The notes under the pieces are model-generated. The model made no database searches, was not told the origin of the DNA, and saw only the letters and a list, made by a program, of their open reading frames with translations. Position numbers and translations under genes: made by a program. This document shows positions 47,199 to 51,677 of a stretch of 64,000 nucleotides of DNA, piece after piece. The stretch covers positions 27,336 through 91,335 of the forward strand of contig JAEHCQ010000005.1 in NCBI GenBank assembly GCA_020696385.1, written 5' to 3'. Numbering within the stretch: position 1 is the first letter of the stretch; every line of letters starts with the position of its first letter. Source of the DNA: Methanobacteriota archaeon (GTDB lineage Archaea > Thermoplasmatota > Thermoplasmata > SG8-5 > JAGLSY01).

Positions 47199-48128
47199 TC
47201 AGTGAGAGATATACATCCCGCAATTGCTCTTGATCTGATTTTCCTCAACTTCTCCAATGCTTAGCAATACCTCGAAACCCAGTGCTTCGAATTCATCGAT
47301 CAGCCTTTTCAAATTATGCTGATGTTCATGACCCTCCTCATCGATCAGACTTTCCAGCAGATTGGCCTTGGAATTGTTAGTTGGGTTGATAGGTGTCAGT
47401 TTGATCAGGAATTTGTCTGTTGGGAACATGTCCGCGATCTTATGGGGGCTGACGGGATATCCCTGAGCCATCGCAAAGTTAAGTGTCACTTTGCGGTCAC
47501 CCTCTTTGCAGAACCTCTGGCCAAATTCAGATATCTGCTCCAGGCTCATTTTATTGATTGGCATGAGCTCATCACGCTTTTCATCATCGGTCGTGTGGAT
47601 GGAGAATTGCATCTGAAACTTGCCATCGGGATAAAGCTCGTCCTTGATCTCCAATAGCTCTTCGAAGAAGGGCCAGGCTCCTGCTGGAGCCACAGTCGAT
47701 ATGCACGGCAGAAGCCCGGGAGCATCCAGATGTTCCGGCAGCATTCTGAGAGTCTGAAGCACATTCGGATTGAGGGCGGGCTCGCCCATTCTGGCAAATT
47801 GGATCTTGAACTTTGGGACAGGTACTTTGCCATCCGGAAATCGCGTTCTTATCAGATAATCGATCTGAGCCAGCATTTCCTCGGCTTCCAGTTTACCACT
47901 GTAATTACCACCCGCATCGCACATCCTACACCTCACCGGGCATCCGAATAGCGAGGAGATGATTATCACCCACTTCTCCTCCCTCGGGACAGGAGGCTGG
48001 ATGGATTCTGCGAATTCAACAAGATAGGGATCTTTCACATTTGAGCCAGCGGTATCTTCTTCCTCTCGGAATCTCGCGACATACACCTTGGCCAGTCCCT
48101 CATTGCCGTGCTCGGATATTATTTTCAT
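47199..48128 (-). CDS. RlmN/Cfr-like radical SAM protein, atypical
   Basis: SSLFGCPVRCRMC, ARMGEP, SIHT, LMPIN, C-terminal NCG. Confidence 0.85.
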   Translation of the reverse strand: MKIISEHGNEGLAKVYVARFREEEDTAGSNVKDPYLVEFAESIQPPVPREEKWVIIISSLFGCPVRCRMCDAGGNYSGKLEAEEMLAQIDYLIRTRFPDGKVPVPKFKIQFARMGEPALNPNVLQTLRMLPEHLDAPGLLPCISTVAPAGAWPFFEELLEIKDELYPDGKFQMQFSIHTTDDEKRDELMPINKMSLEQISEFGQRFCKEGDRKVTLNFAMAQGYPVSPHKIADMFPTDKFLIKLTPINPTNNSKANLLESLIDEEGHEHQHNLKRLIDEFEALGFEVLLSIGEVEENQIKSNCGMYISH

Positions 48129-49027
48129 ATGATATCCTCCTGATTATCCGAGATACTTTCCAGAAATTTCATAATGCCCATCGCGGCCTTGATACCGTCC
48201 CCGACAGCTATGCCCATTTGGCGATAACTGCCCTGCTGCACATCCCCCGCGATGTAGAGGCCCGGGAGTGCGTTCGCGCCCGTATCGCGTTGTAAGGGCA
48301 CGATTAACTCATCGGATGGTCGCCTTCCAATGGCGACCAGTACGATATCTGCTTTTATCTGCATGTGGGGGCATTTGATAACCAGACGGCCTCCATGCAT
48401 CTCGAAGGAGGCCGGATTACAATCCTGGTATATCTGGATACTTGGATCATTCTCTGCCCTTTCATAAAGCAAGGGCAGGCATCTTGGCTTGTCGGATCTC
48501 ATCGCGATTCGAACACTGGCTCCCTTTTCGGAAAGATTGAGCGCATAGTCAAAGGCCGCGTCCCCGCCTCCGATGACAACCACTTCCTTCCCGGAAATAT
48601 TGTCTGGCAGGTCGGCTATCTCGTAAAAAAGATGCTTCCCCTCGATGATATCAGAGCCATCGAGGTCCAATTTGAGAGGAATAGTGCCAGTGGCGATAAT
48701 AACAGTGCGGGCATCCAGTTCCTTAGGTTCGGGGTCTTCCAAGCGCACGCGGAACCCGACATCATTCCTTTCGATGTCGGTCACTTCCGCCATCTCCACC
48801 TCGATATCCCATCTGGCAAGCTGGCCTTCCATCTCTTCCACCAGTTTCTTGCCAGGCAGTCCGTCAAAGCCAGGATAGTTCTCCACAAGGTGGGCATTAT
48901 GAAGAAGCCCACCAGTTCGCTTTCTCTCGAATATCTTGAATTTAATTCCCGCTCGTTTTAGAAAGACCGCGGCGGATATTCCAGCCGGGCCAGCACCCAC
49001 GATAATGGTGTCCAAGCTCTCGGTCAT
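48125..49027 (-). CDS. Thioredoxin-reductase-like FAD/NAD(P) oxidoreductase without CxxC
   Basis: GAGPAG, VENYPGF, IATG, GGGDAA, AGDV; FYEIA at the usual CxxC position. Confidence 0.85.
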   Translation of the reverse strand: MTESLDTIIVGAGPAGISAAVFLKRAGIKFKIFERKRTGGLLHNAHLVENYPGFDGLPGKKLVEEMEGQLARWDIEVEMAEVTDIERNDVGFRVRLEDPEPKELDARTVIIATGTIPLKLDLDGSDIIEGKHLFYEIADLPDNISGKEVVVIGGGDAAFDYALNLSEKGASVRIAMRSDKPRCLPLLYERAENDPSIQIYQDCNPASFEMHGGRLVIKCPHMQIKADIVLVAIGRRPSDELIVPLQRDTGANALPGLYIAGDVQQGSYRQMGIAVGDGIKAAMGIMKFLESISDNQEDII

Positions 49028-49737
49028 TGGTCATCCTCCTCTATCTCCATCATCTCAATTATCTCGGAGGTTGTCACAGGTACTGCGAAACCATCAGCCA
49101 GTGTTCGTAAGGCCGACATGTGCAGTTCTTCAGTATCGGATGCTGTAGCATCGACCACCGCATAGACCTCCAGGTCCTGCATGAAGGCATCACGGCATGT
49201 TGATTCCACACATAGGTGGGTCTGCACGCCAGCTACTATTATTGAGCGGATTCGCATACCTGCCAATACAGAGGCCAGTGCCGTCCCTTTAAAGGCACTG
49301 TATCTTGATTTTCGTATCACCAGCTCATCGCCTTCCGGCTGCAGCTCGGGAGCTATCTGGCTCATTGTATCTGAGCCCCGGAGAACATCACCCCACCAGC
49401 GGCCCATTATTCCGGGTTCCTCGTCATCTGTGAGGGCATGTCGGGTGTAGATCACCGACATGTCATTCTGCCTGGCTATTTCGATCAACCGGGCAATATT
49501 AGGCAGAATCGCCTTCGAGGTTGGAACGAAGGCATGGCATTTTTCATCCAAAAAGAAGGACTGGCAGTCGATTATAAGAAGAACTGAATTACTTTTATCC
49601 AGGGCGAATCTCTTCTTCGCCCTGCAATAAGATTCCAGTTCGGATATCCACCCACTGGCCTTATCCTGAATATTGCCGAGATTAGCGTACTCCTCATCCT
49701 TAATGTATCCAATATCCTTGTCTGAAACCATGTACAT
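49024..49737 (-). CDS. Isochorismatase-family cysteine hydrolase
   Basis: IIDCQSFF, IRKSRYSAF, GVQTHLCVESTCRDA (D-K-C triad). Confidence 0.9.
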   Translation of the reverse strand: MYMVSDKDIGYIKDEEYANLGNIQDKASGWISELESYCRAKKRFALDKSNSVLLIIDCQSFFLDEKCHAFVPTSKAILPNIARLIEIARQNDMSVIYTRHALTDDEEPGIMGRWWGDVLRGSDTMSQIAPELQPEGDELVIRKSRYSAFKGTALASVLAGMRIRSIIVAGVQTHLCVESTCRDAFMQDLEVYAVVDATASDTEELHMSALRTLADGFAVPVTTSEIIEMMEIEEDDQ

Positions 49738-49892
49738 TCCTTCATGGTTTCCTGGTTTAGGGAGCTGGAAACTCTAAAACATTGCTCCGTATCCAGGGGT
49801 AAAATGAAACGGGTTAAAATATATTTTGGATAATATGAGGTGCGGATAAGTTTTAACTATCAATTCCACCATCACATCTGGAGAGTGACCAA

Positions 49893-51677
49893 ATGGCAGT
49901 AAGTTATCAGAACAAATATCTATCAATTGACTTGACAAGTGGAACAGTGGAAACAGGGGAGCCAGACCCCGCCGAGCTAGAGAAATTCCTCGGCGGCAAG
50001 GGCCTTGGCCTATCCCTGCTTTGTAAACTAGATACATCCACGGATGCGCTGGATCCTGATAATCCAATGATATTCCTTACTGGCCCGCTCACAGGCACGA
50101 CCATGACCACATCCAATCGGTCATGCATTGTCACACGCTCTCCACTCACAGGCGGCTTCCTGGATTCCCATGCTGGAGGAAAATATGGAACCGCGATCAA
50201 GGGTGCTGGCTATGATTATATAATTATCAAGGGCAAGTCTCAAAAACCAGTCTATATCCACGTGACTCCCGAAGGAACCGAGATACTGGATGCAGATGGA
50301 TTATGGGGAAAGGGATGCTTCGAGACAGAGGACATCATCAAGGAATCCTATCCAAAGGCAGAGATCGCCAGCATAGGACCGGCTGGCGAGAATCTTGTTA
50401 AATTCGCCTGCATCAGCACCGACAAATCGCGTCAGTTCGGCCGCGGAGGAACCGGGGCTGTCATGGGCTCGAAGAATCTTAAAGCACTTGTCATCGAGGG
50501 CAGGGAACTTACAAATTATCACAATTCTGACAAGTTCAGGGAGCTATCGAAGACCCTGACGAAAGACGTACTGGCACATCCAGGCAAGATCAAAAGAAAT
50601 GACCTCGGCACCATGATGTGGGTGCGCATGGGGCATGAAGATGGACATTTCCTGCCAACCCGTAATTTCCAGAAGGGACAGTTCGATGGCTATGAGGGCA
50701 TAACCTCCGAGGCGATGAAAAATGAACTCGGAGGATGGAAGAACACTGGATGTTTCAATTGTGCCATCCAGTGCTCGAAGGTCGCCGTCTGGGACGGCTA
50801 TGAATTCGAGGGCCCAGAGTACGAGACAACGGCCTACCTAGGATCTGGCTGCGAGATAGGGGATGCCAAGGCGGTCGCGAAGGCCAATTACATGTGCGAT
50901 GATCTTGGCCTGGATACGATCTCCGCAGGTGTTACGATATCCTTCGCGATGGAGGCTGCTGAGAAAGGGCTCCTGCCAGAGGAAGATAATGCCAGCATCA
51001 AATTCGGCAGCATTGAGAGCCTGCATGAGACCATACGGAAAATTGCATATCGTGAAGGCATCGGCGACATACTGGCTGAGGGCACACGCCTTGCCTCCAG
51101 AAAAATAGGCAAGGGCAGTGAGTATTTCGCCATCCAGATAGGCGGAATGGAACTGAGCGGTGTGAACCCACTGGGCAGTTATTCCATGGCACTGGCACTG
51201 GCGACATCGGACTTCGCCAGTCATACAAGATTATGGAGTTGCTCGGATGAGATGGCGGGCAACCTGGAACTGGACACGCTGCCGAATTATATTGCGGCTG
51301 GCCAGGATGATGTCAATATACGAAATTGCTTGATAGCCTGCGATTTCCTACCCTTTGGACTTGACAGGCTGGCTCCTCTGGTGGAAGAAGCTACTGGCTT
51401 CAGGACAACGAAGGAAAGCCTGCTTGCAATTGGTGAGAGGGTGCATAATCTGGCCAGAGAATACAATATGAGAACTGGTCGGACGCATGATGATGATATC
51501 CTGCCAGGGAGATTCCACGAGGAAGAATCTATCGCGGGTCTGATGAATGGGCAAAGGATCTCTAAAGAATTCTTCGAAAGCCAGCTTCAGGATTATTACA
51601 AGCTCAGAGGTTGGGATGATAAAGGCAGACCGACCAGGGAGACCATGGAAAAGGCTGATCTTGGCTCATATATTTGA
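49893..51677 (+). CDS. aor: Aldehyde:ferredoxin oxidoreductase family protein (W/Mo-pterin)
   Basis: LGGKGLG, SPLTGG..DSHAGG, SIGPAGENLV.FA, GRGGTGAVMGSKNLKA, C..C...C, GPEYET, DDLGLDTIS. Confidence 0.92.
   Translation: MAVSYQNKYLSIDLTSGTVETGEPDPAELEKFLGGKGLGLSLLCKLDTSTDALDPDNPMIFLTGPLTGTTMTTSNRSCIVTRSPLTGGFLDSHAGGKYGTAIKGAGYDYIIIKGKSQKPVYIHVTPEGTEILDADGLWGKGCFETEDIIKESYPKAEIASIGPAGENLVKFACISTDKSRQFGRGGTGAVMGSKNLKALVIEGRELTNYHNSDKFRELSKTLTKDVLAHPGKIKRNDLGTMMWVRMGHEDGHFLPTRNFQKGQFDGYEGITSEAMKNELGGWKNTGCFNCAIQCSKVAVWDGYEFEGPEYETTAYLGSGCEIGDAKAVAKANYMCDDLGLDTISAGVTISFAMEAAEKGLLPEEDNASIKFGSIESLHETIRKIAYREGIGDILAEGTRLASRKIGKGSEYFAIQIGGMELSGVNPLGSYSMALALATSDFASHTRLWSCSDEMAGNLELDTLPNYIAAGQDDVNIRNCLIACDFLPFGLDRLAPLVEEATGFRTTKESLLAIGERVHNLAREYNMRTGRTHDDDILPGRFHEEESIAGLMNGQRISKEFFESQLQDYYKLRGWDDKGRPTRETMEKADLGSYI

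Follow-up and report, generated by a model that had tools for sequence, protein, structure and literature searches.

A conserved three-gene module pairing an RlmN/Cfr-like radical SAM enzyme that has one conserved non-cluster cysteine with a cysteine-free flavoprotein and an isochorismatase-family hydrolase

The stretch of DNA analysed here (64,000 nt, referred to as the window) comes from the genome of an uncultured sediment Thermoplasmata archaeon, which is 94.5% complete. It contains three consecutive genes encoding an isochorismatase-family cysteine hydrolase (P0001), a flavoprotein with the fold of thioredoxin reductase (TrxR; P0002) and a radical S-adenosylmethionine (SAM) enzyme related to the RNA methylases RlmN and Cfr (P0003). 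Together these genes are a self-contained module: a conserved three-enzyme unit that is distinct from RlmN. P0003 represents a large sister group of RlmN/Cfr that keeps only the cysteine corresponding to the RlmN methyl carrier and that has recruited a cysteine-free flavoprotein. We tentatively suggest, with slightly less than even confidence, that P0003 transfers a methyl or methylene group via methyl-Cys303 to a substrate other than rRNA, with NAD(P)H electrons or hydride delivered by P0002 replacing the missing cysteine.

RlmN and Cfr need two cysteines to methylate RNA and are, to our knowledge, the only characterised class A radical SAM methylases. RlmN consumes two electrons per turnover: Cys118 of the Escherichia coli enzyme, located seven residues ahead of the first cluster cysteine, frees the Cys355-CH2-substrate adduct by forming a Cys118-Cys355 disulfide. 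In an alignment with E. coli RlmN (taken from NC_000913), the cluster motif of P0003 is CPVRCRMC, with C63/C67/C70 matching C125/C129/C132, and C303 (SNCG, within the C-terminal SNCGMYISH) matches Cys355 (AACGQ). The Cys118 column holds Ile in P0003, which reads KWVIIISSLFGCPVRCRMC in this region, and I, L, V or N across the family. An earlier note on this DNA, made from the letters alone, had proposed that CVSSQVGC is replaced with loss of the resolving cysteine, that the C-terminal Cys (NCG), MGEP and LMPIN are retained, and that the RlmN N-terminal domain is missing; all of this is borne out. A spatially equivalent second cysteine, which the same note had named as the finding that would speak against it, was not recovered: in a census of 178 family sequences the only invariant cysteines are the three cluster residues and C303, and no second catalytic cysteine is conserved in cis (at position 142, 44% of the sequences have Cys and 54% have Ser). 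Because Cys118 is lost family-wide, the exact mechanism of RlmN cannot operate here.

RlmN and Cfr are nevertheless the closest relatives of P0003 by hidden Markov model, PDB sequence and fold. The best NCBIfam match is RlmN (TIGR00048) at 51.9 bits against a cut-off of 290, Cfr models score 46-48 bits against cut-offs of 530-550, and only the generic Radical_SAM model is matched in Pfam, weakly. PDB sequence relatives are restricted to RlmN and Cfr (RlmN E-value 5e-10). The AlphaFold2 (AF2) model of P0003 has a mean predicted local distance difference test (pLDDT) score of 94.5, and its best Foldseek matches are RlmN, 6fz6 and Cfr with template modelling (TM) scores of approximately 0.7, the next fold scoring 0.51. 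The ESM Atlas contributed only unnamed 'radical SAM' clusters for the family. The RlmN match begins only at RlmN residue ~70-87, with approximately 45 residues of P0003 preceding the core, so the N-terminal RNA-binding domain is absent. In a quick IQ-TREE maximum-likelihood tree, genuine RlmN (support 100) is parted from the P0003 family by a long branch.

P0002 has the architecture of low-Mr TrxR (Pyr_redox_2, 92 bits; TIGR01292, 167 bits against a cut-off of 343), with LFYEIAD in place of the TrxR CxxC. Its 49 orthologues retain GxGxxG, GGGDAA and R177, which we take to be the Arg that usually binds the NADPH 2'-phosphate, and have no conserved cysteine. The AF2 model (pLDDT 94.3) most closely resembles TrxR in the flavin-reducing (FR) conformation (TM 0.86). 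Matches to ferredoxin-NADP+ reductases (FNRs) in the PDB (E 1e-18 to 1e-13) are weaker than those to TrxR. TrxR-type ferredoxin/flavodoxin-NADP+ reductases have a C-terminal extension that covers the flavin; the P0002 chain stops directly after the last helix of the model, at 300 aa. The earlier note had treated P0002 as a TrxB deprived of its CxxC. While TrxB does require this motif, the description 'cysteine-free NAD(P)H flavoprotein' suits P0002 better than that of a damaged TrxB.

P0001 belongs to Pfam PF00857 (148 bits, cut-off 27) and falls below every curated NCBIfam equivalog cut-off, including those for RutB (68.6 against 378 bits), BiuH (57.9 against 370), PncA (21.4 against 174) and YcaC (22.4 against 310). 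Its triad is D57-K143-C176; among 39 orthologues D57 and C176 are invariant and K143 is conserved in at least 90%. The best PDB sequence relatives are isochorismatases, in which Gly occupies the position of C176.

The radical SAM family has more than 5000 homologues (E <= 0.001) in archaea and bacteria, with phages as a further branch. Among 301 Thermoplasmata genomes, 87 contain it, nearly always as a single match and with a patchy distribution by family; two unpublished genomes, G098 and G211, are counted in the class-level tallies. The three genes are adjacent in 18 of the 20 Thermoplasmata loci that were fetched, and the trio recurs in hundreds of anaerobic archaea and bacteria. Beyond the trio no further conserved partner was observed: the most frequent Pfam family among 104 flanking open reading frames was counted four times. 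A scan using one genome per species returned 80 loci, of which 52 belong to subfamily A (>=37% identity to P0003) and 28 to subfamily B. Subfamily A loci, all outside Thermoplasmata, come from Myxococcota/deltaproteobacteria, Elusimicrobiota, Acidobacteriota, WOR-3, Planctomycetota and Heimdallarchaeota; the flavoprotein gene is adjacent in 44, the hydrolase gene in 34 and both in 32, with contig ends cutting four of the eight loci that have no flavoprotein gene. Natural fusions join the flavoprotein to the radical SAM enzyme (P0124, P0152, P0162) or the radical SAM enzyme to the hydrolase (P0157-P0159, P0195). Where partners are unlinked, they can be found elsewhere in the same genome at 185-264 bits, a family-level match: the hydrolase gene lies at another site in G014 and G304, a hydrolase-flavoprotein pair occupies a separate contig in G136, and G306 has such a pair on one contig and its sole radical SAM gene on another. 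The cluster is thus conserved across archaea and bacteria, as the earlier note had left to a neighbourhood analysis, and its description of an uncharacterised three-enzyme set agrees with the adjacency, the fusions and the co-occurrence of unlinked partners. Literature searches on the gene combination and on RlmN-like single-cysteine enzymes returned nothing relevant. A predicted complex of the three chains scored 0.00, a result that we give no weight either way.

Sister clade B (27-35% identity to P0003) displays the same single-cysteine pattern and has neither partner. Its hosts include Moorella, Bacteroides, Lachnospiraceae and bacteria of the candidate phyla radiation (CPR). Phages commonly carry it too: it corresponds to phrog_24834, is present in Bacteroides phage Versailles and has at least 528 relatives in IMG/VR. 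Of 80 viral loci, 40 have the clade B gene next to another radical SAM gene, a small one of ~243 aa; four bacterial loci have a gene resembling nicotinamide mononucleotide (NMN) adenylyltransferase beside it. Triple fusions in this clade (P0252, from a Bacilli metagenome-assembled genome [MAG], P0247 and P0211) combine a QueT-like membrane domain, the RlmN-like radical SAM domain and a methylthioadenosine (MTA)/S-adenosylhomocysteine (SAH) nucleosidase, the last scoring, in one clade member, 224 bits against a cut-off of 169. MTA/SAH nucleosidase clears SAH and 5'-deoxyadenosine, and the fusion therefore fits an enzyme in which SAM is consumed rather than recycled, hinting at stoichiometric SAM consumption. 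A role in queuosine salvage was considered and rejected. With scores of 30-40 bits at a cut-off of 33.7, the QueT-like matches are borderline, and they are confined to the sister clade; the queuine lyase QueL of Clostridioides difficile (Q186P0), which resembles clade B as a radical SAM enzyme linked to an energy-coupling factor (ECF) S-component transporter, is filed under IPR006638 and not in the RlmN family (PMC11130926, Table S6), a distinction of family filing and not of sequence.

For the trio itself, the proposed methyl or methylene transfer would proceed as follows. Cys303 would be methylated by one SAM, and a second SAM would be cleaved to the 5'-deoxyadenosyl radical, activating the methyl group on Cys303; the resulting S-CH2 radical would add to an sp2 carbon of the non-rRNA substrate. 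Release of the adduct would then be assisted by the partner flavoprotein instead of a disulfide of the RlmN type. We read P0002 as the electron supplier because RlmN needs two electrons and a cysteine-free NAD(P)H flavoprotein is the constant companion of this enzyme. With NAD(P)H as the source, it may pass two electrons to the cluster in each turnover, or it may transfer them as a hydride to the exocyclic methylene that would remain once the Cys303 thiolate has been eliminated, the latter being possible if the attacked carbon adjoins a carbonyl or imine. Through cleavage of an amide, ureido or enol-ether group, the cysteine hydrolase would either generate the substrate or complete the product. 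A common small metabolite is the probable substrate.

The nature of this metabolite is hinted at by gene context. Five related Elusimicrobiales loci share a packed operon, panB-panC-coaC-coaB-coaX-panD-flavoprotein-rSAM::hydrolase (rSAM, radical SAM gene), with the module at its end. In three Myxococcota/deltaproteobacterial loci the radical SAM gene is divergent to a panB gene; two of these genomes, G306 and G307, were searched, and each has two panB copies. In one more locus coaC adjoins the radical SAM gene. In two bacterial lineages, then, the context points towards pantothenate/CoA (2-oxo-acid) metabolism; it exceeds chance for a single-copy gene, yet involves two or three lineages only and is a lead, not a result. 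A 4.5-kb MAG contig (L071) carries two identical 301-aa radical SAM copies in tandem (830-1735 and 2087-2992) followed by coaC, which may be either a real duplication or an assembly artefact.

Several points weigh against the proposed mechanism. The methyl-carrier role of Cys303 is assigned by alignment only, and this residue could instead donate a hydrogen atom. Electron donation to the cluster and hydride donation to an intermediate are equally compatible with the data, and nothing distinguishes them. The hydrolase gene is not adjacent in 18 of the 52 non-Thermoplasmata loci, and the hydrolase may therefore be accessory. Finally, the pantothenate context is limited to two to three lineages, PanB (PF02548) was found in none of the 301 Thermoplasmata genomes searched, and the module and IlvC do not complement each other cleanly: both are present in family f7 and both are missing from family f13.

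The strongest alternative, which we nonetheless consider unlikely, is that P0003 is not a methylase: Cys303 would donate a hydrogen atom or carry a thiyl radical, the enzyme being a radical lyase, isomerase or reductase, with the flavoprotein re-reducing the enzyme. Spore photoproduct lyase and the radical SAM epimerases provide models for such a cysteine. A single conserved non-cluster cysteine with a dedicated reductant fits enzymes of this type, and the family-wide loss of Cys118 excludes the RlmN mechanism in its exact form. However, Cys303 is situated in the same CGQ loop as the methyl carrier of RlmN, and the nucleosidase fusion in clade B suggests stoichiometric SAM use; neither observation is decisive.

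We regard as rather improbable a second alternative, that the flavoprotein is a private FNR-like donor to the [4Fe-4S] cluster and the hydrolase an unrelated passenger that has been repeatedly co-inherited. TrxR-fold flavoproteins without CxxC do include ferredoxin-NADP reductases, with the PDB matches noted above, and the loci in which the hydrolase gene is not adjacent are in keeping with a passenger. A passenger does not sit easily with the fusions of radical SAM enzyme and hydrolase in Elusimicrobiota or with the unlinked, family-specific hydrolase orthologues in G014, G304, G136 and G306. Moreover, dozens of other radical SAM enzymes per genome work without a private reductase.

It is also possible in principle, but to our minds quite doubtful, that the family methylates RNA, leaving an m2A- or m8A-like mark on tRNA or rRNA, with the adduct resolved in trans by a partner protein or small thiol. 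RlmN and Cfr, whose activity is C2/C8 methylation of A2503 in 23S rRNA or of A37 in tRNA, are the nearest relatives in sequence and fold, and every sequence of the census has the counterpart of Cys355. JGI labels family members, archaeal ones included, as 23S rRNA A2503 methyltransferase. Against this, scores lie far under the curated cut-off and bacterial carriers keep a genuine RlmN: five bacteria with a family member also match the RlmN model, four of them over the curated cut-off and the fifth having its RlmN gene split in two, and Cys occupies position -7 in each of the six genuine RlmN sequences extracted. Family members are acidic: their median isoelectric point (pI) is 5.95 compared with 9.1 for six RlmN sequences, a small comparison that is only suggestive with respect to substrate type. 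We know of no RNA methylase with obligatory coupling to a flavoprotein and a hydrolase. The missing RNA-binding domain and the acidity of the family are compatible with the different chemistry on a non-RNA substrate that the earlier note had supposed.

A more specific version of the methyl/methylene transfer proposal, which we offer as a long shot, is that the trio is a folate-independent radical 'methylene-then-reduce' one-carbon transferase of pantoate/CoA biosynthesis, with a 2-oxo acid or an enolpyruvyl compound as its substrate. The methyl-Cys303 radical would add to the enol carbon; elimination of the thiolate would follow, so that a second cysteine would not be required; the methylene would then be reduced by the flavoprotein; and an enol-ether or amide precursor would be handled by the isochorismatase-like enzyme. 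If true, this would account for the Elusimicrobiales operon and for the pairing of panB with the radical SAM gene in Myxococcota; it would also explain where Thermoplasmata, which have no PanB in the genomes searched, obtain their ketopantoate. Phosphopantothenate synthetase (PPS, PF02006) is common in this class (247 of 301 genomes; IlvC is present in 111). The window's genome has PPS and a PanE/ApbA-like gene (G000:C22:65585-66028); searches of it for PanB, PanC and IlvC found none of the three. The idea that the module stands in for PanB, or for the formation of 2-oxoisovalerate through IlvC, was rejected in the absence of clean phyletic complementarity, and because module presence does not complement IlvC cleanly the pantothenate link is a lead only.

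Two side observations arose from these searches. In many genomes of family f7, for example at G299:C1:159889-160827 and G151:C1:1791393-1792331, the match to ilvC is interrupted by a single in-frame stop, which is TAG, TGA or TAA according to the genome. Over 20 genomes from genera g11, g29 and g49 show it, and these stops are too recurrent for random pseudogenes. An alternative thymidylate synthase was another candidate role for the module and was rejected, as 19 of the 21 genomes searched (the window's genome and 20 relatives) contain ThyX, the window's genome among them; ThyA was found in none of the 21. ThyX appears as two tandem Thy1 domains in one 565-aa open frame outside the window (G000:C22:8611-9975), and the same arrangement is seen in most relatives.

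The coordinates of the module and its surroundings are listed in Table 1. Both ATGA overlaps (CAATGACC and CATATGAAA), by which the earlier note had joined the trio, were confirmed by reading the sequence. Upstream of the operon is an A/T-rich intergenic region, AAAATATATTTTAA, that is presumed to contain the promoter of the operon, and beyond it the divergent aldehyde:ferredoxin oxidoreductase (AOR) gene, again as the note had described. The high local GC content that it had reported was measured as 66.7% at 48241-48300, a value reached by only 0.05% of 60-nt windows.

Table 1. Features of the module locus in the window, and locus sets of sister clade B
Feature	Position	Strand	Remarks
Isochorismatase-family cysteine hydrolase P0001	49024-49737	-	237 aa; first gene of operon
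TrxR-fold flavoprotein P0002 without redox disulfide	48125-49027	-	300 aa; second gene
RlmN/Cfr-like radical SAM enzyme P0003	47199-48128	-	309 aa; third gene
ATGA stop/start overlap, hydrolase/flavoprotein	49024-49027	-	Sequence read
ATGA stop/start overlap, flavoprotein/radical SAM gene	48125-48128	-	Sequence read
Intergenic region between operon and divergent AOR gene	49738-49892	-	155 nt; sequence read
Aldehyde:ferredoxin oxidoreductase (AOR)	49893-51677	+	AFOR_N/AFOR_C; divergent to operon
Clade B locus sets	L053-L132 (28 subfamily B loci), L146-L225, L133:7001-8008		

The note had further set the trio beside the W/Mo aldehyde oxidoreductase and considered lateral acquisition; neither a tie to that gene nor lateral acquisition was upheld. 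That the gene order reflects chance or lateral acquisition together with the neighbouring AOR gene is scarcely credible: the AOR gene is divergent at a distance of 155 nt and the GC content of the module (50.3%) is 5 points over the window mean (45.3%), but AOR adjoins the module in no other locus family, a genome of the same genus carries another upstream gene, and the AOR gene has the same GC content as the module (50.9%). The adjacency is coincidental and coupling to AOR is refuted, while lateral acquisition, for which the argument is only this mild rise in GC content common to both, is weakly supported. No Rfam element was found near the module in the 18 other loci searched; a thiamine pyrophosphate (TPP) riboswitch 3 kb from the module in L088 is unrelated. 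A role in anti-phage defence was rejected, no meaningful PADLOC match being obtained for any of the three proteins.

Solving the trio would reveal a new route for resolving a protein-substrate adduct and probably a new metabolite or cofactor modification, and would correct a widespread mis-annotation as 23S rRNA A2503 methyltransferase. The pantothenate link, if true, would bear on pantoate synthesis in archaea that lack PanB.

Among known systems, the P0003 family is most like RlmN/Cfr (TIGR00048, TIGR04432; PDB 3rfa, 5hr7, 6fz6, 9p0p), with which it shares the fold (TM ~0.7), CX3CX2C, the MGEP and S(I/L)H...RDE..P(I)N motifs and, in the CGQ loop of the C-terminal region, the invariant Cys that the alignment places on the methyl carrier Cys355. 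It differs in having no Cys118 equivalent (178 of 178 sequences) and no N-terminal RNA-binding domain, in being acidic and not basic, in its low score (51.9 bits for P0003 against 290), in forming a separate clade that coexists with genuine RlmN, and in its flavoprotein partner. P0002 shares with TrxR (TIGR01292) and FNR (PDB 3lzw, 3ab1) the two-Rossmann-domain fold, the FAD and NAD(P)H motifs and, in its model, the NADPH-to-FAD (FR) conformation. Unlike these enzymes, its family has no CxxC and no conserved cysteine, and the flavoprotein is joined to a radical SAM enzyme by fusion or by translational coupling; P0002, with 300 aa, is also shorter than the matched FNR entries (329-360 aa). Within PF00857, P0001 resembles the cysteine amidohydrolases CSHase, RutB, PncA and BiuH in its domain and D-K-C triad, and the vinyl-ether hydrolases EntB and PhzD in that its best PDB matches are enolpyruvyl-ether hydrolases; its own conserved GxMxxWW motif and the C-terminal fusion to the radical SAM enzyme in Elusimicrobiota set its family apart. 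ThyX and TrmFO, which carry out flavin-dependent methylene transfer followed by reduction, offer an analogy and not a homology for the proposed chemistry: a one-carbon unit at the methylene level would be transferred, and an exocyclic methylene would be converted to methyl by reduced flavin. The folds are unrelated, however, and the carbon would here come from SAM via a methyl-cysteine radical and not from folate.

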